Virus record (IMG/VR): IMGVR_UViG_3300046171_000023
Location: 1 to 51,846 of that record
Length of the DNA: 51,846 nucleotides
Reading direction: 5' to 3' (one strand)
Source of the DNA: a virus
Taxonomy: Duplodnaviria; Caudoviricetes
In this document: piece by piece, positions 16,329-32,098 of the stretch
Position numbering within the stretch: the stretch's first letter is position 1
Layout of the letters: each line of letters begins with the position of its first letter
Notes under the pieces: model-generated
What the model saw: only the letters and a program-made list of their open reading frames with translations
Told to the model about the DNA's origin: nothing
The model's database searches: none
Position numbers and translations under genes: made by a program

Positions 16329-18051
16329 ACCAATTCTCTCCTATTTTGTATTCTCCTGTTAGAGGACAACGCATGTTAAAGTGTTGACTTGCTTTTCTAT
16401 AGCCTTCAACTCCTAGTTGCTCCTACAAATTCAGCTTGAGTTTCATGTACTTGCTATCTGCCATTCGTCATGAATGTTAGCTACAAACTTAGCATCAAGA
16501 GTATTTAAGTTTATTAAATCTTGTAAGATACACATAGCTTTCTTCATAGCTATTGCACCACCACCTTGTAATAAAGTATTAAGTGCAGCATGTTGACTAC
16601 GTACATATATCTTACGACCATCTAATCCTTTTAGAATCCTCGTTCAGAAGCTTTCTGTACTTTATCTTTTAAAGTTCTAAGTGAAGGTAAGTTCTTGAAA
16701 GAAAGTTTGTTTTAGTTCTTTACCTTTCTTTAATCCACCACCTGCTACACTACCTATCTTAGCATCACCTGCACCATAAACTAAAGCATATATAAATGTC
16801 TTAGCTTGGTCTCTAGTCTTTAGACCTGCAAGATTTTGATTAGTAGTATGTATGTCTCCATTAATAACTTCTTCAATATAATCAGGGTCATTCATGTAGT
16901 GTGCTAACATTCTAAGTTCTAATCCACTAGCATCTATACCTACAAGCTTTATATCCTTCAGGTACAGTCCAACATGAACGACACTCTTTACCATATGGGC
17001 TACCTGCATTAGGTACTTGTGCCATGTTAGGATTTCTATGTGTCATTCTACCTGTAATAGTACCATTAGGTATTACACTACCATGTACTCTATCTTCTTT
17101 GAGTTCATCTATCCATGATGTTACTTGAGCAATCCTCTTTTGATATAGTAAAAAGTCTGCAATTAACTTAGCTTCACGGATATGTTTAATCTTTTTCAAA
17201 GTACCTTCATCAACAATAGGCTGACCTGTAGGTGTAAATTTTACAGGCTTCCAACCAAAGTCAATAAGATATTCTCCTATTTGTTTACGACTACCAAGAT
17301 TAAAGTCTACTAGTTTTTGTCTAGTAAATGGTTTAACATTTTCTGTAGTTAAACATCTATTATATTCTTCATCAGTTAAACCACGCTTAGATAACTGTCC
17401 GTCTTTTCTAACATAAGGTGTAACTAATTTATCATCAACTAGTTTAGGTTTAAATGTATTATGAACTTCATCTTCAACAGCAAGTTGCTTTGCTTTAAGT
17501 TCAGCTAATAATTCCATAGCTTGTTTAGTATTAAAAAAGAACCCAGTCTTTTCTTGTTCTTTCATTATCTTAGCTACATCATGTTCAAGTTTAATAGATT
17601 CTTTACTAAATATATTACCTTCTTTTAATAGATAATGATATACAGATTCATTTAACTTAACATCTTGAACACAATATTCTAACATAGCAGGTGTATATTC
17701 ATCAAAGGTTTCAGGTTGTTCTTGTTTTAAAGAACCAACACGCCAACCCCAAGCTTTTAAACTATGTCCATTCTCACGAACAGGATTAAATAACCTTGAC
17801 ATTACTAGTGTGTCTTCAATACTACAATCAAACTTAGCACCATATAACTTTTCTAATACAGGAATGTCATAGCCTATAATGTTATGACCTATTAATGTAT
17901 CAGCAGTTTGTAAAAACTTAATGCCTTCTTCTATTTGAGTATTGTCAAACTTATATATATCTCCTGATACTTCTTTAGCTACAATACACCACACATTATT
18001 AGGGTCTAGTCCGTCAGCTTCTATATCAAATACTAATTTAAAATTGCTCAT
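16315..18051 (-). CDS. polA: Family A DNA polymerase (T7-like, with 3'-5' exonuclease), several apparent indels between 16400 and 16950
   Basis: Exo motifs FDIEADG, GHNIIGYD, YCVQDV; TGRMTHRNPN; motif A DASGLELR; motif B RDQAKTFIYALVYG (Tyr at the 762-equivalent site, as in T7); motif C IHDEWQ; ends NWYETH. Confidence 0.92.
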
Positions 18052-19702
18052 TGTCAAATGTCTCCTCTTCTGATACTTCAAATAATCTACCAGTATCAGT
18101 ATTATATCTAAGACCACAAGCTAATCCTGTGTCTCCTGTATACCTAGATTTTAGTACACGAACCTTAGTTGTATTAGCTTCTTCAGGATTAGTTGCTTGT
18201 TGATTTCTCTCTAATGCAATTACAGAATCTGATAGTTGAGCTATACCTTGTGAGCCTTTAAGATGAGATAAAGAAACTTCTATTCCTTGTTCATGTCCTT
18301 TATCTCCTGCTGCTCTTCTAAGATGAGATACTAATATCATACCAACACCTGTCTCTTCTACAAGACTACGTAATTTATTCATAAGCATATCAATACCTCG
18401 TCTCTCGTCTCCTTCATGGAGTACATTAACAAGCATATGTAAGTGGTCAACTATAACCCATTTACATTCACAACCTACAATAATATATCTAAGCTTGGCA
18501 AAGATATCATCAATGTCAGTAGCACCTAAATGAGAATGAATGAATACTCTGCCTTTAGGTATAGCCTTATCAAACAAACCCAATAGGTCATCGTCTGTAT
18601 AATTCTTACGTTTCTCTGATAAATATATTCTATCGTTAGCTTCAATAGATAAAATACCGTCAGCAGTTCTTAACCAATTCTCTTCAAGTGCTACAATACC
18701 TACATTGTCTTTTGTATTTTTGATAAGCCAATGCTCTAGCTCTCTAGTAACACTAGACTTACCAAGACCTGTGCCACCTGTAAGGGTAACAAGTTCTCCT
18801 TTACGCATACCATATAGTTTCTTGTTCAAGCCTTCCCATGGATATGCAATACTTTCCTTCTCTTCTCTATGTAACCAATCGCCTTTTTGTGATGATAGCT
18901 CCATGATTCCTGAAGGTGTATATGTCTTAGCATTCCACCAAGCCTGAGTAAACTCTTGGAATTTCTTTTGTTTAAGCATTTCATTTGCATCTTTGAATCC
19001 ATTTGGAAATGACATGATTCTAGTTTTGTTAGGCTTTAGTATTTTAGCTACAGCTTTAGCTGCTTGTTTACCTGCCTTGTCATTATCAAAACATAGAACT
19101 ACATTGTCAAATGATTCTACAAATTCTATACTCTCTCGTATATCTTTAACAGCAGCCGAAGCTCCACGCTTTAAAGATACTACTGACCACTTACCTTGAA
19201 AGAGTTCATGTACTGCCATAGCATCACACTCTCCTTCGGTAATAGTCAAGTACTTACCACCTGTATTTCCATACAGTTGCTCTCCAAATAAACCTGTGTT
19301 TTCAAATGTACCATTACATGCAAAGTTTTTGTTAGATACAAATCTTGTTTTAGTACCAACAATCTCACTACCATTAAAGTATGGGTAGATGTGTTGAGTA
19401 ACATTATTGTTTCTATCCTTTACCATTTTAACACCGAACTTAGTTGCTGTATTTTCAGAGATACCTCTGTCAGTTAAAGCACCATAAGCACCAGTATAAG
19501 ATGTAAGGAATGTATTATCAGGTTTAGGTTTACTCGTCATCTCAACTACCTTACCAGTTGATTCATTGTCATAGTCTGTAAAGAATGTATTACAACTAAA
19601 ACATTTAGCAGAACCATTCTCATTTAGAGAAACAGCATCACTGCTACTACATTTAGGGCAAGGTAATTTGTGTTTAATAAATTGAGTTCTTTCTTGTTGC
19701 AT
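18038..19702 (-). CDS. Primase-helicase (T7 gp4-like)
   Basis: Zn finger CPKC...CFSC; TOPRIM TEGECDA and FDND; Walker A GGTGLGKS; VDHLH; LKGSQGIAQLSD. Confidence 0.95.
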   Translation of the reverse strand: MQQERTQFIKHKLPCPKCSSSDAVSLNENGSAKCFSCNTFFTDYDNESTGKVVEMTSKPKPDNTFLTSYTGAYGALTDRGISENTATKFGVKMVKDRNNNVTQHIYPYFNGSEIVGTKTRFVSNKNFACNGTFENTGLFGEQLYGNTGGKYLTITEGECDAMAVHELFQGKWSVVSLKRGASAAVKDIRESIEFVESFDNVVLCFDNDKAGKQAAKAVAKILKPNKTRIMSFPNGFKDANEMLKQKKFQEFTQAWWNAKTYTPSGIMELSSQKGDWLHREEKESIAYPWEGLNKKLYGMRKGELVTLTGGTGLGKSSVTRELEHWLIKNTKDNVGIVALEENWLRTADGILSIEANDRIYLSEKRKNYTDDDLLGLFDKAIPKGRVFIHSHLGATDIDDIFAKLRYIIVGCECKWVIVDHLHMLVNVLHEGDERRGIDMLMNKLRSLVEETGVGMILVSHLRRAAGDKGHEQGIEVSLSHLKGSQGIAQLSDSVIALERNQQATNPEEANTTKVRVLKSRYTGDTGLACGLRYNTDTGRLFEVSEEETFDNEQF

Positions 19703-27622: not shown

Positions 27623-27650
27623 ATTTTACCGACCAAGCCAAAAAAGTCAA
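27623..27650 (-). promoter_or_regulatory. Sigma70-type early promoter
   Basis: TTGACT-16 nt-TAAAAT; shares its upstream repeat with the 27221 promoter. Confidence 0.75.
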
Positions 27651-27770
27651 GCGTCTTAACAAACTTAAGATATACTTATAATTTTAAGATTGCTAGGACT
27701 TAAACACAACTTTAAAATTATACTTAAATTATACTTAAATTTAAAAGTGCAAAAACTTAAAATTAAATTT

Positions 27771-27844
27771 AAATTCACAGGTTATCCACAGATATTTTAT
27801 ACTTATCCACAGGTAATTAACAGGATATACATAAGATATACACA
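27771..27844 (+). promoter_or_regulatory. DnaA-box array in AT-rich DNA (candidate origin or DnaA-binding locus)
   Basis: Perfect TTATCCACA at 27782 and 27803; degenerate boxes at 27771, 27814, 27825 and 27836. Confidence 0.7.
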
Positions 27845-27939
27845 GATTTGCCCTCAATTACCTGCCCAAATTTTAAAAATCCCTCAACCACCTGCAATGA
27901 ACTTAAAACTCGAGCTTAAACTTAAACTTAATTAAATTA

Positions 27940-27968
27940 ATTATTTCTTTGGTATGGTATCCTGTCAA
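27940..27968 (-). promoter_or_regulatory. Possible sigma70 promoter firing toward the DnaA-box array
   Basis: TTGACA-17 nt-AATAAT. Confidence 0.5.
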
Positions 27969-28040
27969 TTATAAAAAGCAATTACGAAGTAATTTCACTA
28001 TTAAGAATCAGATTTGTTTTAAAATATAACTTATAGACAT

Positions 28041-28073
28041 AAAAAAACTCTCCCACTTGTAAGGCGAGAGAGT
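28041..28073 (-). terminator. Rho-independent terminator of the two-gene unit
   Basis: ACTCTCTCGC-loop-GTGGGAGAGT followed by a T run, 10 nt after the stop codon. Confidence 0.85.
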
Positions 28074-28083
28074 CTTTGAGGCT

Positions 28084-28356
28084 TTAGTTAGCCTGTTGTT
28101 TGAGATACGAAGCTATCTTGTCAAGATATACTTTTGGAAGAGATTTGCCTGTAATAAGCGAATGAGCTTTCTTGAAGGTTAGTCTTTCTTCTTTAGCAAG
28201 GCTATAAAGACAGCCTGTAATTTGCTTTTGAAGCTTCCAGTTCATCTTAGTACCATTCTTAGCGAATTTGTACCCAATGGCTTGACATTGACGGAACGAA
28301 GCTGGGCTTGAAGTTCTGTCTTTGTCGAACGTGTTTATATCAAATGTATTTTCCAT
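28084..28356 (-). CDS. Hypothetical basic protein (90 aa) inside the fold-back
   Basis: RBS AAGGAG, followed by a terminator; PASFRQ...LTFKKAHSLI. Confidence 0.85.
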   Translation of the reverse strand: MENTFDINTFDKDRTSSPASFRQCQAIGYKFAKNGTKMNWKLQKQITGCLYSLAKEERLTFKKAHSLITGKSLPKVYLDKIASYLKQQAN

Positions 28357-28367
28357 ATTTTTCTCCT

Positions 28368-28550
28368 TTAAGAAATGGATTTATAAATACCTGCAATGTA
28401 GTCTTGCAAGTGGTTAGTATCAGAAGCATTAGTGCATCTGACTTTCACAGCATGAATGCCACTTATGAATAAATCCATAGTGTACATTTGTGCTGAAGAA
28501 ATTGTTGGAAACTCTAGGGTTTCGTTGTTTGAGTAGCTGACTAGTATCAT
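28368..28550 (-). CDS. Hypothetical protein (60 aa) inside the fold-back
   Basis: RBS TAAGGAG; stop overlaps the RBS of the next gene. Confidence 0.75.
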   Translation of the reverse strand: MILVSYSNNETLEFPTISSAQMYTMDLFISGIHAVKVRCTNASDTNHLQDYIAGIYKSIS

Positions 28551-29528
28551 AGTATCTCCTTATTAAATAGGTTCTTTTGCACATGAAGATTTTCAAGTAC
28601 AAGTGCTTGAGTTTTGTGAGGTTTTGGGAACAAAAGTTTTATAGATTTCCGAGTCTTCGAGGAAATACTGTAAACACTTGTACTTTAAAATCTTTATGTA
28701 ATTGTAAACCTGTTTAATGGAGATGCATATGATTCTTGTTAGGTACTTAAGCGACTAAGCCCAGAGTTTCCACGATTTATTAGTGCAAGTGTGCAGTATG
28801 GTTTTAGTCGTTAGTGGGATTTATGTTGTGGAACAAAAGCATGGGCTAATGCAAGGATGCTAAACACTTGGAAGGCTTTACAATTGCAGAGTATTTATGG
28901 ATTTGTTTCTTGAAGGAAGGGAAAATGTGAGAAAATCCTTTTGATATAGATGCGTTTGAGAACGACTAGAACTTCAGTTCAGATTTGTTTTGTCGGTGTC
29001 TCGCCATTGGTTATACAAATTACGTTAAGAGTGGTGCTTTAGTTGAACTAGGAAGGTTTTAAAGTAGATTAGAGGTTGTCAATGACATAGTCTTGATAGA
29101 GAAGGAAGACTCTTAAGCACCTTCAAGAAAGATTATTTGGGCATTTAAAATTTAGGCAAATCCCAAAAGTGTATCTTAGCACGATAGATTTGTGTCCAAA
29201 GAACAGAGCTGAGTAATGCCCAAAGAATCCGAAGCCTTCCAAGTGGGAGAGAAACCACAAAGGTCTAAAGTTATACTCCACTCAAATATGATTTATAAGG
29301 TGGGCAGGAGACCATACCCTCTACCCTATATATCTATAGCATGATTATACATTTTCTAGGATAATGGTCATTAACCAGAACTAGTTAACGCCCCGACATT
29401 AAAACTCTAAAGTCTTTGTAGTATTTAAAGGTATTTATTACACCCACAATATAGTCTCTCTACTAGGGAGCCAATAGTTTTGGAGGGGGTGTGTTTTGGT
29501 TATATTGAACCCGGGAGGGCACAATGTT

Positions 29529-29557
29529 AGTATAGCATCTAAATCACGATTTGTCAA
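29529..29557 (-). promoter_or_regulatory. Leftward sigma70 promoter of a back-to-back pair
   Basis: TTGACA-17 nt-TATACT. Confidence 0.8.
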
Positions 29558-29571
29558 TACCTAATTTAAAC

Positions 29572-29600
29572 TTGACAACTTTAAAATTAGAGTGTATACT
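29572..29600 (+). promoter_or_regulatory. Rightward sigma70 promoter of the late arm
   Basis: TTGACA-17 nt-TATACT; ATG begins 7 nt after the -10. Confidence 0.85.
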
Positions 29601-29606
29601 AGATTC

Positions 29607-30035
29607 ATGGCTATATTACCAAGTGTTGATACTACAACAACAAAAAGAGAACTAACAGATAAACAGAAGTCTTTCCTAGAGCACCTAGTTAATACTAGTG
29701 GTGATGCTAAGAAAGCTGCTGAACTTGCTGGTTATTCTTCACATTATCATCATGTTGTAAAGACTTTAAAGTCTGAGATACTAGAACTCACTCAAGAGAT
29801 ACTAGCAAACTCTGCACCTAAAGCAGCTTTTAAACTTGTAGAGATAATGGAATCTAAAAAACCTATAGTACAAGCAGCAAATAAACTTACTGCTGCACAG
29901 ACTTTATTAGATAGAGTTGGTGTTAGTAGAGTAGATAAAGTAGATGTAAATCATAACATGGCTAGTGGTGGTATCTTTTTGATGCCTGATAAAGCTCCTG
30001 TAGTTATAGATGCAGAGGATGCAGAGTATGACTAA
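29607..30035 (+). CDS. terS: Terminase small subunit (probably leaderless)
   Basis: LTDKQKSFL...AKKAAELAGYS HTH pattern; AAQTLLDRVG; first late gene. Confidence 0.75.
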   Translation: MAILPSVDTTTTKRELTDKQKSFLEHLVNTSGDAKKAAELAGYSSHYHHVVKTLKSEILELTQEILANSAPKAAFKLVEIMESKKPIVQAANKLTAAQTLLDRVGVSRVDKVDVNHNMASGGIFLMPDKAPVVIDAEDAEYD

Positions 30036-30204
30036 ACTTTGGATAACTGAACATGTTAATGAAGATGGAGCTGCAATAGGTCCATACATTAAAGCTGATA
30101 CAGTTGCTGAAGCAAATAGAATAGCTATACAATATGGGTTGTTAGTTTTAGGAGAGATTCAAGAACTACAACACGATAACTTTAAAGAAGAGGTAATACA
30201 CTAA
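30028..30204 (+). CDS. Hypothetical protein
   Basis: MTKLWITEH...; overlaps flanking start/stop codons. Confidence 0.7.
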   Translation: MTKLWITEHVNEDGAAIGPYIKADTVAEANRIAIQYGLLVLGEIQELQHDNFKEEVIH

Positions 30205-30491
30205 TGGCTAAAAAGAAAGATTCAAGATTAGCAAAAGCAGGAGTAAGTGGTTATAACAAACCTAAAAGAACTCCAAGTCACAAAACTAAATCACATGTAG
30301 TTGTTGCTAAAGTTGGCGATAAAATTAAAACTATTAGATTTGGACAACAAGGTGTGCGTGGTGCTGGTAAGAATCCAACAACTGCAAAAGACAAAGCTAG
30401 AAAAAAATCTTATTATGCAAGACATAATGCACAAGATTCTAAACCTAGTAAGTTAAGTGCAAGGTATTGGTCACATAAAGTTAAATGGTAA
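30204..30491 (+). CDS. Small basic protein
   Basis: KTIRFGQQG...RKKSYYARH...ARYWSHKVKW. Confidence 0.8.
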   Translation: MAKKKDSRLAKAGVSGYNKPKRTPSHKTKSHVVVAKVGDKIKTIRFGQQGVRGAGKNPTTAKDKARKKSYYARHNAQDSKPSKLSARYWSHKVKW

Positions 30492-30561
30492 AAATGTTTA
30501 ATAAGTTACACAAGTTTATGAAGTGTGGTAGAATAAATAAAGTTTGGAAACTATTTGGCTA

Positions 30562-30981
30562 ATGGCATATTCACAAAAAGTAGTTGATAGGTTTGAAAGT
30601 GTTTTAAACAATCCACAGAAACATTCTGTTGGAAGGTTTGACCCCAAAGACCCTAATGTTGCTACAGGAATAACAGGTGCTCCTGCATGTGGTGATGTTA
30701 TGAAACTACAAATTAAATTAAACAATGATGTTATAGAAGATGTCAAGTTTAAAACATATGGATGTGGAAGTGCTATTGCATCTTCTACTATGTTTGTAGA
30801 AATGTTAAAAGGTAAAACTATAGCAGAAGCTAAACTTATTAAAGATAAAGATATAGCAGAAGCTTTAGAACTACCACCAATCAAACTACATTGTAGTGTA
30901 TTAGCTGAAGATAGTATTAAAGAAGCTATAAAGAATTGGGAAGAAAAAATAGCACACAGGAAACATAATCATTATGGGTAA
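30562..30981 (+). CDS. iscU: Fe-S cluster assembly scaffold IscU
   Basis: MAYSQKVVD, GAPACGDVMKLQI, FKTYGCGSAIASS, LELPPIKLHCSVLAED; all three Cys intact. Confidence 0.93.
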   Translation: MAYSQKVVDRFESVLNNPQKHSVGRFDPKDPNVATGITGAPACGDVMKLQIKLNNDVIEDVKFKTYGCGSAIASSTMFVEMLKGKTIAEAKLIKDKDIAEALELPPIKLHCSVLAEDSIKEAIKNWEEKIAHRKHNHYG

Positions 30982-31156
30982 ACAAATAGGAAGTGATGAA
31001 AAACCCATGGTGTTTAGAAAAAGTATTTATGGTAAAAGCGATGGTGGTAAAGGAGCTAGACCTAGAATAAATATTTTTTCAAAACAATATCAAGATAACT
31101 GGGATAAGATTTTTAATAAAGGAGAAAATAATGCCAAGAAAAAAAACAACGACTAA
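30974..31156 (+). CDS. Hypothetical protein
   Basis: GGKGARPR...YQDNWDKIF. Confidence 0.7.
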   Translation: MGKQIGSDEKPMVFRKSIYGKSDGGKGARPRINIFSKQYQDNWDKIFNKGENNAKKKNND

Positions 31157-31331
31157 AAAGAAAAAGTCAACCGTTAATAAAGCTGGTAATTATACTAAGC
31201 CTACAATGCGTAAGAGGCTTTTCGAGAAAATCAAAGCCGGTTCTAAAGGTGGTAATTCCGGACAATGGTCGGCTCGGAAAGCCCAGATGTTAGCTAAACA
31301 ATATAAAGCTGCAGGTGGTGGCTATAAATAA
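31131..31331 (+). CDS. Small basic protein (DUF5872-like)
   Basis: NYTKPTMRKRL...GQWSARKAQMLAKQYKAAGGGY. Confidence 0.75.
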   Translation: MPRKKTTTKKKKSTVNKAGNYTKPTMRKRLFEKIKAGSKGGNSGQWSARKAQMLAKQYKAAGGGYK

Positions 31332-31642
31332 TGCCAACAAAAAAGAAAGACCCTAAAACAGGAACAGGAAAAAAACCCAAAGGAAGTGGGAGGAGATTAT
31401 ATACAGATGAAAATCCAAAAGATACTATCAGCATTAAATTTAAAACTGCAGCAGATGCTAGAGCAACTGTGGCAAAAGTTAAAAGGATTAAAAAACCTTT
31501 TGCTAGAAAAATTCAAATACTTACAGTTTTGGAACAAAGAGCAAAAGTTGCCGGTAAAACGCAACAAGCGAAAATCGCCAAGCAAGGCAAAGAAGCAATA
31601 AGGAAAAAACATGGCACTAAAAAAGTCTCAAAAAAGTCTTAA
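31331..31642 (+). CDS. Small basic protein
   Basis: GTGKKPKGSGRRLYTDENP; TAATG coupling. Confidence 0.75.
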   Translation: MPTKKKDPKTGTGKKPKGSGRRLYTDENPKDTISIKFKTAADARATVAKVKRIKKPFARKIQILTVLEQRAKVAGKTQQAKIAKQGKEAIRKKHGTKKVSKKS

Positions 31643-31853
31643 GACTTGGACTAAACAAAAGTGGAGAACTGCTAGTGGAAAAAAATCTTCTAAGACTGGT
31701 GAGGTTTATGCTCCTGCTCAAACAATAGCAAAGCTTAAATCCACTGCAGCAGGTCGTAAGAAACTTGCAGCAGCTAATAAAAAGAAAAGAGCAGCTACTA
31801 AAAAAGGTAAGCAACATGCTAAACATGGTTTACATAAAGGTAAAAAAAGATAA
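31611..31853 (+). CDS. Small basic protein
   Basis: SQKSLKTWTKQKWRT...SKTGEVY. Confidence 0.75.
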   Translation: MALKKSQKSLKTWTKQKWRTASGKKSSKTGEVYAPAQTIAKLKSTAAGRKKLAAANKKKRAATKKGKQHAKHGLHKGKKR

Positions 31854-32098
31854 TGAAAGAAGGTTATATAACTAGAGCTTCTTCAACTATACCATTTGGA
31901 TATGAAATAGATGAAGAGTCTAGTTCTTTTTTAAAACCTATAGAGGATGAGTTAAAAATATTAAAAGAAGTATCTGAGGCTGTGTTTCATAATGAAATTA
32001 GTTTGGGTGTAGGAGTAGACTGGTTAGAAGCAGAGACAGGTAAAAGAATGTCTAGACCGGGATTAAAGAAACACGTAGATAAAGTATATGGAAGATAA
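31853..32098 (+). CDS. Small putative DNA-binding protein
   Basis: TIPFGY...WLEAETGKRMSRPGL resembles recombinase-associated HTH modules. Confidence 0.55.
   Translation: MKEGYITRASSTIPFGYEIDEESSSFLKPIEDELKILKEVSEAVFHNEISLGVGVDWLEAETGKRMSRPGLKKHVDKVYGR

Follow-up and report, generated by a model that had tools for sequence, protein, structure and literature searches.

Why would a compact phage genome keep a long, non-coding, inverted copy of two of its own small genes, and in which molecule would such a copy matter? The question is raised by a locus in the 51,846-nucleotide stretch of viral DNA analysed here (the window), where a leftward replication and early module meets a rightward packaging and structural module; its carriers are uncultured relatives of HTVC103P-type pelagiphages. 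A preliminary description had read the locus as a colinear, indel-rich inverted copy of a complete two-gene operon. Global alignment of one arm (27951-28655) to the reverse complement of the other (28656-29318) bears this out, with 491 matches, 134 mismatches and 118 gap columns, and an independent repeat search agrees, recovering five colinear inverted blocks in the element (I1, I6, I18, I2 and I4) and, among its inverted blocks, the closing pair 27951-27980 / 29289-29318. Arm-to-arm identity is 78.6% by the global alignment and 78-79% across alignments. The parts of the element are as follows.

27951..28655, + strand: arm A, which carries the two genes; their template (antisense) strand is the + strand.
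28043..28077, - strand: intrinsic terminator of the two-gene operon, within arm A; near-invariant in 13/13 aligned elements.
28084..28356, - strand: gene for a 90-aa protein, with a Shine-Dalgarno sequence; predicted four-helix protein (ORF list, structure prediction).
28368..28550, - strand: gene for a 60-aa protein, with a Shine-Dalgarno sequence; predicted beta-beta-alpha-beta-alpha fold (ORF list, structure prediction).
28645..28666, + strand: apex hairpin, ATTTCC (28645-28650)-GAGTCTTCGA-GGAAAT (28661-28666); within a three-way branch of the predicted fold.
28656..29318, + strand: arm B, non-coding; mirrors the operon with its ribosome-binding sites and terminator, and extends some way past them (alignment to arm A).
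29221..29251, + strand: mirror of the terminator in arm B, with one stem half swapped (CCGAAGCC) and no T run (block I2).

The apex is predicted to fold as first described, inside a three-way branch that it shares with a side hairpin specific to arm A (~28611-28637), and its stem covaries in relatives, where ATTTCC/GGAAAT exchanges with ATTTTC/GAAAAT as read off a multi-element alignment. The flanks on either side of the element are unrelated to one another. The outermost ~90 nt of pairing in the window (27951-28040) depends on a 29-nt gap, and the outer boundary is not fixed, as local alignments in relatives stop 35-133 nt past the stop codon. Across elements the whole structure measures 1006-1368 nt, half of it coding, and the non-coding mirror of two small genes takes up 2-3% of a compact genome. 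Arm B holds no intact paralogue: its longest ORFs, in 60 distinct elements, encode 28-90 aa and are dissimilar to the arm-A proteins.

The fold-back is not an assembly artefact, because 71 independent IMG/VR contigs share its architecture. Continuity across the apex, which had been left to be confirmed by mapping reads, is seen in a 2197-nt contig from DNA run X1 (possibly the source sample) that covers 27636-29832 with zero differences.

Both genes appear to be under protein-coding selection. The 60-aa ORF could be searched for in 59 loci and is intact in every one, with dN/dS of 0.28-0.41 in deep comparisons; for the 90-aa gene dN/dS is 0.08-0.25, and the N-terminus MENTFDIN is invariant in 30/30 aligned sequences. 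The disabled mirror of the terminator leaves a 4-nt internal loop in the fold-back, and this too is conserved in 13/13 elements. Neither small protein has a family in PHROGs or Pfam or a match at E <= 0.001 in Foldseek searches of PDB and BFVD, and the ESM Atlas gave no usable match for them. Searches of cultured phages (blastn, tblastn) returned no match to the region or the 90-aa protein, and Rfam has no family at the element (E up to 1) apart from a chance miRNA row. The Foldseek output for the 60-aa model includes weak rows for T7 Gp2 (E 1.9-2.2) and one BFVD row, at rank 18, named 'inhibitor of host RNA polymerase'; neither was built upon.

If the mirror were useless, relatives should lose it or let it drift away from their own genes. 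Instead, every related IMG/VR locus with upstream sequence has its own arm (71/71, comprising 59/59 and a further 12/12), and arm-to-arm identity stays at 75-89%, also among relatives whose 90-aa proteins share only 45-50% identity, with synonymous sites saturated between genomes (dS up to 0.95-2.65). The arms also change together. At sites where two genomes differ in arm A, they also differ at the arm-B partner in 47-82% of cases, compared to 1-25% where arm A is the same, with pairs taken from pairwise alignments in which gap placement is ambiguous. Most coupled changes are exactly compensating: between the window and L001, 14 of 33 compensate fully and 6 by half, and between the window and L004, 27 and 7 of 46. 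In 13 elements, 136 pairs changed on both sides, a count reached by 0/500 shuffles (82.6 +/- 5.1). With the window's own structure as the reference, pairing is found in 81.5% of cells over these 13 elements and falls to 39-46% once partners are shifted by 1-3 columns. The arms were aligned separately and then paired genome by genome, as a joint alignment under-aligned arm B (identity 0.67 vs 0.79 pairwise). Sequence comparison thus indicates that the fold-back is maintained and is not a decaying duplicate, because the arm is found in 71/71 relatives and arms track their own genes site by site, as the idea of a selected element and its proposed check on homologs had anticipated.

The two arms do not evolve at the same pace, arm B changing ~2x faster than arm A (B-B identity 61-85% vs A-A 78-92%). 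Nor do they form the near-perfect dyad of a cruciform or hairpin-telomere target, given 75-89% identity and 23-49 gap openings; in 30 elements the longest perfect run between arms reaches 12-26 bp and does not exceed shuffle expectation, which argues against large gene-conversion tracts. The sequences flanking the element are mosaic (61-83% identity), and polarising substitutions in them was not workable. The cultured relatives examined (HTVC115P, HTVC103P, HTVC033P and HMO-2011) appear from their sequences to be without the element: HTVC033P and HMO-2011 have no fold-back at the equivalent junction, and the scores of HTVC103P, like those of HTVC115P when its tail was compared with its start, stayed within shuffle background. 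The AT-rich junction of HTVC115P, compared to its own inverse, scores ~4-5 sd above a mononucleotide shuffle, which was judged to reflect low complexity.

The mismatches that remain between the arms are strongly asymmetric with respect to strand. In the window element, 57 are G.T on the + strand (33 + 24) vs 10 A.C, and 59 vs 11 in a second alignment, so that the asymmetry noted earlier for part of one gene extends over the whole element. Over 25 representatives, G.T exceeds A.C by 737 to 279 (in 20 representatives vs 5), G.G exceeds C.C by 198 to 57 (21 vs 3) and A.G exceeds C.T by 460 to 283 (19 vs 4), with A.A and T.T unbiased (297 vs 322); the representatives are not phylogenetically independent, and sign tests on these counts therefore overstate significance. 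At least eight separate clades share this direction. In roughly half of the lineages there is little or no asymmetry, ~12/25 representatives having <=20 G.T, and A.C exceeds G.T in five (L012, L055, L054, L057 and L052). Within G.T-rich clades, exchanges between Watson-Crick and G.T pairs outnumber those between Watson-Crick and A.C pairs by 29:3, 39:5 and 28:4, which indicates that the bias is ongoing. Polarised changes in the window's clade, mostly in arm B, are on the + strand A>G (21) and C>T (11) vs G>A (1-2) and T>C (1).

This bias is confined to positions that pair. At aligned arm-B positions the + strand G:C ratio is 2856:2044, compared to 153:159 at unpaired arm-B insertions (Fisher p = 0.0017), and in the G.T-rich representatives it is 1300:776 vs 61:69 (p = 0.0005); the 180-nt spacer beside arm B has a GC skew of -0.12. 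As the G excess is missing from both insertions and spacer, a regional mutation bias is excluded. A C-rich, G-poor leader for Rho loading was considered as a cause of the asymmetry and ruled out, the unpaired arm-B bases and the spacer being without the skew. Four-fold sites are 90-93% A+T and non-coding DNA here is 63-74% A+T; for this reason, use of the former as a neutral equilibrium was dropped.

The predicted folds follow the mismatches. Over the whole element, the + strand folds at -675 kcal/mol with RNA parameters (15 shuffles, -336; z -31) and -326 with DNA parameters, vs -448 (z -25) and -232 for the - strand. Both strands are thus predicted to form a rod, that of the + strand being by far the stronger; the RNA fold of the - strand has 472 arm-to-arm pairs. 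Equal folding of both strands, named at the outset as a finding that would speak against the idea, is not the pattern among relatives, since the + strand RNA minimum free energy lies below that of the - strand in 22/25 representatives (1.02-1.54 fold); in the other 3/25 the + strand folds no better.

The features that neighbour the element are given below.

27705..27845, + strand: origin-like region, AT-rich 11-nt-phased repeats (27705-27775) followed by an array of DnaA-box-like 9-mers (repeat and box scan).
27940..27968, - strand: leftward promoter-like site TTGACA-17-AATAAT, for downstream early genes (promoter scan).
29319..29528, no strand assigned: non-coding spacer from arm B to the promoters; on the + strand its GC skew and that of paired arm-B positions have opposite signs.
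29529..29557, - strand: leftward sigma-70-like promoter TTGACA-17-TATACT (with TG), reading into the spacer, arm B and then both genes (promoter scan).
29572..29600, + strand: rightward promoter TTGACA-17-TATACT, ahead of the small-terminase gene and late module (promoter scan).

An equivalent of the leftward promoter at 29529 lies 190-290 nt beyond arm B in 27/27 elements scanned. No consistent -35/-10 pair was found in the promoter scan between the apex and the 60-aa gene in either arm, and 'inside' hits are sporadic, 100-300 nt from the apex. Early - strand mRNA should therefore carry both arms, as judged from promoter positions, and in its predicted fold the Shine-Dalgarno sequence of the 60-aa gene is buried, pairing with AUCUCC of arm B. 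The -35 of the promoter-like site at 27940..27968 falls within the closing stem of the window's fold-back; most relatives have leftward promoter-like sites to the left of the element, at a distance of 100-400 nt. To the left of arm A, 13/27 elements have a rightward promoter-like site (TTCACA-18-TATACT in the window; matching at 12/12 in L054), and promoter-like matches are near chance in this AT-rich DNA, with 12 found in the window region vs 9.4 +/- 3.2 expected. The DnaA-box-like array contains two perfect copies of TTATCCACA, at 27782 and 27803, and strict DnaA boxes number only 2 + 2 in the whole window. In relatives, strict boxes lie left of the element in 24/47 loci; because they are missing in 23/47, including several G.T-rich clades, the link of the element to an origin appears loose. 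Among the proteins scanned, a subset of the window's ORFs, are a T7-like primase-helicase (18038-19702) and a family-A polymerase.

To account for the observed conservation, covariation and strand bias, and for the restriction of that bias to paired positions, we tentatively favor a selected, strand-specific fold-back of the + strand, which we take to be single-stranded DNA (ssDNA); it is our leading explanation and far from a secure one. Arm B would have no coding role and would be kept only for pairing with arm A when the + strand is single-stranded. That strand would be exposed as DNA when replication crosses the junction of the early and packaging modules, beside which a putative DnaA-box array lies in about half of the lineages. 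Protein-coding selection would hold arm A and arm B would follow, with compensating changes probably arising from short template switches between the arms and then being retained by selection. As G.T, G.G and G.A would hardly weaken the + strand helix, they would be tolerated or favored, and their mirror images A.C, C.C and C.T would be removed. The outcome would be a + strand rod of >500 pairs in a duplex whose perfect repeats are no longer than 12-26 bp. The rod might serve as a signal for loading or priming, cause a pause on the template of the lagging strand, or fold back an end that has been resected.

From sequence features, the folded molecule would more likely be ssDNA than RNA. Three weak pointers lead there: only 13/27 elements have a rightward promoter-like site on the left of arm A, DnaA boxes are found beside the element in 24/47 loci, and T.T is not preferred over A.A. 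In RNA, U.U is favored over A.A. Against the DNA reading, a role in mRNA on the - strand is anatomically more obvious, because the leftward promoter puts both arms in the early mRNA, where the fold has a z of -25 and a Shine-Dalgarno sequence is buried. Moreover, a stable hairpin on the lagging-strand template is normally harmful, so that a benefit must be assumed for the ssDNA reading.

The preliminary description knew of no comparable phage element, and our literature searches agree: main texts on pelagiphages and bacteriophage genomes gave no description of one, and that of PMC9038755 makes no mention of an inverted repeat, hairpin, promoter, terminal repeat, origin of replication or 'palindrom-'. 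The element points to a selected single-strand structure of a previously undescribed kind. It is possible, if doubtful, that it represents a new class, a kilobase 'mirror arm' whose sole purpose would be to fold one DNA strand of an operon into a rod when the genome replicates or its ends are processed, rich in wobble pairs and, as duplex, too mismatched to recombine or extrude. That the mirror has stayed in register while synonymous sites turned over completely amounts to an unusual and very strong constraint, one that ties protein-coding evolution to nucleic-acid structure over >500 positions; the element offers a natural example of how wobble-pair design separates single-strand folding from duplex homology. 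The element marks the junction of replication, early transcription and packaging, and the function of its rod could explain how replication begins in these phages or how their first genes are timed. If replication began or were controlled at the rod, in a phage group that is among the most abundant in the sea, this would be the first single-strand signal with a set of genes as its stem, and it would exceed all known ones tenfold in size. The covariation data are also extensive enough to test models of long-helix upkeep, by selection vs template switching.

One known likeness is to the Frpo and ssi elements of plasmid leading regions, which passages of PMC11541004 describe as strand-specific, imperfect fold-backs of one strand, Frpo acting only when its strand is single-stranded; regulatory regions of 50-350 bp were searched there, and the stem rebuilds -35 and -10 hexamers. 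Our element resembles Frpo in that one strand folds better in most representatives (22/25). It is unlike Frpo in being 1006-1368 nt and partly coding, with a whole operon in one arm, in rebuilding no consistent hexamer pair from the apex to the first gene, and in being carried by a dsDNA tailed phage for which single-strand entry is not known.

The single-strand origins (sso) of rolling-circle plasmids and the complementary-strand origins of filamentous phages are imperfect palindromes in folded ssDNA that start synthesis of the other strand in an orientation-dependent manner; they are non-coding, roughly 150-300 nt long, and belong to replicons with an obligatory ssDNA stage. Our element is likewise an orientation-dependent imperfect palindrome near a replication region, but it is ~5x longer than sso and half coding, in a phage with a T7-like primase-helicase and family-A polymerase. 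Fold-back inhibition and cis-antisense leaders of bacterial mRNAs, such as hok mRNA with its fbi element, silence the message by pairing its translation start, over tens of nucleotides, with a remote stretch of the same transcript; the first gene's Shine-Dalgarno sequence is similarly paired in our predicted mRNA fold, but here ~500 pairs extend over two genes and the wobble pattern favors the strand opposite the mRNA. Hairpin-RNA and proto-microRNA loci of plants and flies arise by inverted duplication of a target gene, with both arms non-coding and the RNA diced. As in these loci, an inverted gene copy forms a long, imperfect fold-back that evolves with the gene; unlike them, with their arms apart from the target gene, the working gene is itself one arm, and the bacterial host has no dicing pathway. 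A diversity-generating retroelement was rejected, the differences being of all kinds and in both directions, with many indels, and not at template adenines; no reverse transcriptase was found among the window proteins scanned (a subset of ORFs).

Of the other explanations, one places the pairing in the early mRNA itself, where the ~650-nt arm B would be a cis-antisense leader that pairs with the coding region behind it, hides both ribosome-binding sites, offers a long duplex to RNase III, and so limits or times both early proteins, the pairing being the regulator. The anatomy fits well: the leftward promoter is present in 27/27 elements with none consistently closer to the genes, the terminator lies inside arm A so that promoter to terminator forms one unit, and the mirror spans both ribosome-binding sites, both ORFs and the terminator. 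As in mRNA fold-back inhibition, both partners would lie in one transcript and a ribosome-binding site is predicted to be paired, that of the 60-aa gene with AUCUCC of arm B, in a fold of 472 arm-to-arm pairs (z -25). Covariation of the arms is seen as well, and symmetric lineages fold alike on both strands (L004 1.02, L012 1.00, L052 0.99). However, a leader should keep G.U and remove A.C on the mRNA strand, and the reverse is seen (737 vs 279, with exchanges up to 10:1); the G.G/C.C and A.G/C.T classes also disfavor the mRNA strand. Pairing runs 35-133 nt past the stop codon, beyond the terminator in many loci, and the mirrored terminator is conserved in its disabled state, which an RNA ending at the true terminator would hardly need. 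We regard a cis-antisense leader as unlikely.

The strand bias would instead suit a + strand RNA that starts in the origin-like region, runs rightward, crosses the operon in antisense and continues through arm B. This RNA would form a long G.U-rich duplex and could act as an antisense that sequesters itself, as a regulatory RNA after processing, or as a decoy. Its predicted fold is the more stable one (-675 vs -448 kcal/mol), and the disabled terminator mirror would let it read through. The promoter-like sites left of arm A in 13/27 elements are in its favor, but 14/27, several G.T-rich elements among them, have no rightward promoter at >=10/12, and such matches are near chance (12 vs 9.4 +/- 3.2 in the window region). 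No terminator follows arm B, so that the RNA would enter the late promoter region; T.T is not preferred over A.A, and Rfam has no family at the element. A rightward hairpin RNA is less probable again.

More doubtful still is that the structure has no function, an old inverted duplication having been kept similar by quasipalindrome correction, template switching or short-patch conversion, with the asymmetry a bias of the mechanism. Quasipalindrome correction is a known mutational route that rewrites one arm of an imperfect repeat to match the other, and passages of PMC8794818, PMC8604942 and PMC7202029 describe template switching as homogenising imperfect inverted repeats and able to make compensating changes, so that covariation can arise without selection for structure (PMC8794818). 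The ~2x faster evolution of arm B agrees with this, and family and structure searches assigned no function to the element or either protein. In these passages, however, the process is a mutation mechanism of short repeats and not a functional element, and alone it predicts neither a pair-specific strand bias nor identity bounded at 75-89%, with no element near 100% and no long perfect tracts. A useless arm of 0.5-0.7 kb would also have been retained in 71/71 compact phage genomes despite saturated synonymous divergence, with its internal loops and apex conserved; and a copying mechanism does not predict a G excess limited to paired positions or a bias that runs the same way in at least eight separate clades.

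The alternative raised in the preliminary description, a decaying inverted duplicate (a pseudogene arm) under strand-biased deamination of an exposed strand, fits the C>T and A>G excess of the window taken by itself but is rejected as very improbable, since the arm is kept and co-varies in 71/71 relatives, distant ones included, the G excess departs from regional bias, being confined to paired positions and missing from unpaired arm-B positions (153:159) and the spacer (skew -0.12), four-fold sites of genes on either strand lack such a + strand bias, and A>G exceeds C>T by 21:11 in a genome of ~32% G+C.

RNA runs X15, X16 and X18, available as contigs without strand information, cover the late genes from ~29700 rightward, with a depth of 1.2 in one bin of the fold-back; their missing cover there was not taken as evidence. 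RNA contigs from two studies start near 29701-29703, where the DNA contig goes on, a weak hint.

The fold-back element consists of a coding arm (arm A), an apex and an inverted mirror of the coding arm (arm B), and its parts and surroundings are as follows.

Features of the window and of cultured relatives
27705-27845, left of arm A: origin-like region, AT-rich 11-nt-phased repeats followed by DnaA-box-like 9-mers
27951-28655: arm A
28084-28356, minus strand, in arm A: 90-aa gene with a good ribosome-binding site
28368-28550, minus strand, in arm A: 60-aa gene with a good ribosome-binding site
In arm A: intrinsic terminator of the two-gene operon
28656-29318: arm B
29529-29600, both strands: back-to-back near-consensus sigma-70 promoters, TTGACA-17-TATACT each, -35 boxes 14 nt apart
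L063 1-589, L064 1-720, L140 908-1704 (records of cultured relatives): AT-rich junction at the record ends of HTVC115P and HTVC103P

Full-length alignment of arm A with the reverse complement of arm B gave 491 matches against 134 mismatches, with 118 gap columns, and one contig from a DNA run spans the whole element without any difference, confirming the inverted mirror of an operon reported in the preliminary description. Arm B mirrors both genes, their ribosome-binding sites and the terminator, yet is non-coding: the longest ORFs it contains in 60 distinct elements measure 28-90 aa, the larger ones being unlike the arm-A proteins. The arm-B copy of the terminator (29221-29251) is kept in a disabled form in all 13 aligned elements, one stem half being swapped for CCGAAGCC, which holds a C-GAA-G motif. 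A further hairpin with this motif, AATTAC-GAA-GTAATT (27980-27994), lies in a partnerless segment of arm A and occurs only in the window and the related locus L001. The folding energy of the whole element is -675 kcal/mol (RNA) or -326 (DNA) for the plus strand, which is antisense to both genes, and -448 (RNA) or -232 (DNA) for the minus strand, all four values being 18-31 sd lower than those of shuffles.

Scanning IMG/VR with the 90-aa protein yielded 60 loci; when a 30-sequence alignment served as the query instead, these 60 came back together with 12 that are more distant. One of these 72 contigs has no upstream sequence. All 71 remaining loci carry their own inverted copy upstream of the operon (75-89% identity), including those where the 90-aa protein is just 45-55% identical to that of the window. 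As dS between genomes reaches 0.95 and is saturated beyond, arm B has tracked arm A through complete silent-site turnover. In a joint tree of the arms, arm B clusters at deep levels with arm A of its own genome or clade, on much longer branches; arm-B copies diverge at about twice the rate of arm-A copies.

The two arms also covary. When pairs of genomes were compared, 47-82% of the sites that differed in arm A differed at their arm-B partner too, versus 1-25% of the sites unchanged in arm A, and most double changes regained a Watson-Crick pair. In a 13-element alignment (546 pairs), 81.5% of cells were paired, compared to 76.9% in shuffles (0/500 reached the observed value) and 39-46% in slid controls, and 136 pairs had changed on both sides, compared to 82.6 +/- 5.1 (0/500) and 37-51, respectively; because the pairing was taken from the window itself, this count favors that sequence, a bias of which the slid controls and pairwise counts are independent. 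The apex stem covaries as well among the aligned elements. The longest perfect arm-to-arm run is 12-26 bp in 30 elements, no more than expected from shuffling the same mismatches, so fresh conversion tracts are absent, and arm identity exceeds 89% in no lineage.

The mismatches that remain are distributed unevenly between the strands. Read on the plus strand, 57 of the window's 134 mismatches are G.T and 10 are A.C, and among 25 representative elements G.T outnumbers A.C (737 vs 279), G.G outnumbers C.C (198 vs 57) and A.G outnumbers C.T (460 vs 283), the plus strand having the less disruptive mismatch in all three lopsided classes; A.A and T.T (297 vs 322) show no bias. RNA folding energy is lower for the plus strand in 22 of the 25 (1.02-1.54 fold), the advantage being missing in L012, L052 and L055. 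At least eight separate clades of the arm-A tree, including all 12 most distant loci, show the bias strongly; in other clades it is weak or missing, with a slight reversal in five representatives. Exchanges between Watson-Crick and G.T pairs exceed those between Watson-Crick and A.C pairs by 29:3, 39:5, 28:4 and 12:1 in G.T-rich clades, as compared to about 2:1 in two G.T-poor groups and about 1:1 in two others, the bias in the G.T-rich clades being an exchange still under way. Plus-strand changes in the window's clade, mostly in arm B, comprise 21 A>G and 11 C>T versus 1-2 G>A and one T>C.

This asymmetry is confined to positions that have a partner. The plus-strand G:C ratio is 2856:2044 at partnered arm-B positions and 153:159 at partnerless arm-B insertions (Fisher p = 0.0017); for the G.T-rich representatives the figures are 1300:776 and 61:69 (p = 0.0005). 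The 180 nt adjoining arm B have a skew of -0.12, despite a common transcription and replication regime, and genes of neither orientation showed the plus-strand G excess at their four-fold sites. Since the excess is restricted to partnered positions, the asymmetry is a property of the pairs, as selection for stability of the plus-strand helix predicts, with the caveats that gaps can be placed in more than one way, that the representatives have ancestors in common and that the neutral mutation spectrum is not established. On this comparative evidence we consider it probable that selection for pairing keeps and steers arm B and that the plus strand is the one whose pairing matters, which supports the strand-specific, selected giant hairpin first proposed for this element.

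An alternative is that arm B serves as a cis-antisense leader of the early mRNA, pairing with the coding region behind it. The back-to-back promoters lie approximately 190-290 nt past arm B in 27/27 elements scanned; the predicted start of the rightward one falls at or just ahead of the point where the small-terminase ORF is annotated to begin, and the leftward one is predicted to read through the spacer, arm B and the apex into the two genes, as far as the terminator. Because this leftward promoter is conserved and no promoter nearer to the genes is consistent among these elements, the early mRNA is predicted to carry both arms, and its predicted fold hides the first Shine-Dalgarno sequence, which is the strongest point against a plus-strand DNA function. 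The wobble pattern argues that the early mRNA is not the molecule under stabilizing selection, and we regard the leader explanation as unlikely. Substitutions that spare the plus strand loosen the mRNA fold in G.T-rich lineages, and this loosening may be useful in itself. Short template switches between the arms could plausibly supply the compensating changes (parts of PMC8794818, PMC8604942 and PMC7202029); alone, they leave the pair-specific bias and the bounded identity unexplained. Had an exposed strand been deaminated regionally, or leader-RNA base composition been selected, all arm-B bases and their surroundings would bear the mark; the unbiased partnerless bases and adjoining 180 nt rule this out. 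The decaying duplicate under strand-biased deamination, offered as the alternative in the preliminary description, is rejected by retention of the arm in 71/71 loci and the confinement of the bias to pairs.

If the plus-strand fold is selected, that strand possibly acts as DNA rather than RNA, a tentative reading that we base on three observations: there is no consistent rightward promoter (a promoter-like site left of arm A scores 10/12 in just 13/27 elements), an origin-like array adjoins the element, and the mismatch hierarchy suits DNA no worse than RNA. The array holds two perfect copies of TTATCCACA, 21 nt apart. Strict DnaA boxes, of which the entire window has four, occur at this place in 24/47 loci, all within one part of the tree and spaced 21, 43 or 54 nt apart; the other 23 have none there. 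The sign of the GC skew switches at approximately 28000. As candidate roles, the rod might signal loading or priming on the lagging-strand template, impose a programmed pause, or let a resected end fold back. The element shares with Frpo/ssi promoters the logic of a strand-specific ssDNA fold, and differs from them in size and in promoter hexamers; single-strand origins were also compared, the window's replication genes being a T7-like primase-helicase and a family-A polymerase. For each of mRNA fold-back inhibition, diversity-generating retroelements, cruciform palindromes and decaying duplicates, at least one tested defining feature is lacking. The literature searched, supplementary files aside, does not describe such an element for pelagiphages or other phages.

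Both genes are intact at every locus where they are readable, and dN/dS in deep comparisons (90-aa gene, 0.08-0.25; 60-aa gene, 0.28-0.41) indicates purifying selection. The predicted structures, four helices for the 90-aa protein (pLDDT 83.5) and beta-beta-alpha-beta-alpha for the 60-aa protein (pLDDT 92.1), gave no significant match in structure or family searches. Non-significant matches of the 60-aa fold include T7 Gp2 (PDB ranks 2, 3 and 5; E 1.9-2.2) and one BFVD inhibitor of host RNA polymerase (rank 18); a likeness to Gp2, itself such an inhibitor, is a lead only. The 90-aa protein begins with the same eight residues, MENTFDIN, in 30/30 sequences, even at 49% overall identity. As the DNA for these residues (28333-28356) and its arm-B partner (~28925-28950) are near-invariant in both arms, a nucleotide-level signal may overlie the coding constraint here.

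The window comprises an entire IMG/VR virus record (51,846 bp), estimated to be 98% complete. Leftward genes run from ~28550 down to 10767 and include ribonucleotide reductase and the replication genes, and rightward genes run from 29592 on, beginning with small terminase, large terminase and portal. In its large terminase the phage shares 65% identity with Pelagibacter phages HTVC115P, 103P and 104P and 47% with HMO-2011, and this likeness alone makes SAR11 the putative host. According to parts of the preprint describing the HTVC103P-type group, these phages combine a T7-like replication module with an HMO-2011-like structural module and are very abundant in marine viromes. The gene pair and the fold-back are both missing from the cultured relatives examined, so no laboratory system has the element yet. 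In HTVC115P and HTVC103P, an AT-rich non-coding stretch of 590-800 nt separates the small-terminase gene from the first early genes, and their GenBank records start and finish there; no significant fold-back was found at this junction, though it is unusually long in these phages as well.

The first rightward genes include a NifU-like iron-sulfur cluster assembly gene (30544-30981; PHROG 8429, E 4e-27), and some contigs of the DNA run X1 omit it or nearby stretches (joints 30491-31140, 30492-31397 and 30550-30974), which marks this part of the genome as variable among related phages. Three metatranscriptome runs, belonging to two studies, have contigs that cover 29618-32000 at 90-100% likeness, with a summed depth of up to ~990 (RNA run X15); relatives of the window phage therefore occur in marine RNA libraries. 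Across the window's coding regions, A+T makes up 90-93% of four-fold degenerate sites whichever way the genes run, far above the 63-74% of non-coding DNA in the same genome, and the fold-back's two genes are less extreme at these sites (72% A+T, 58 sites).
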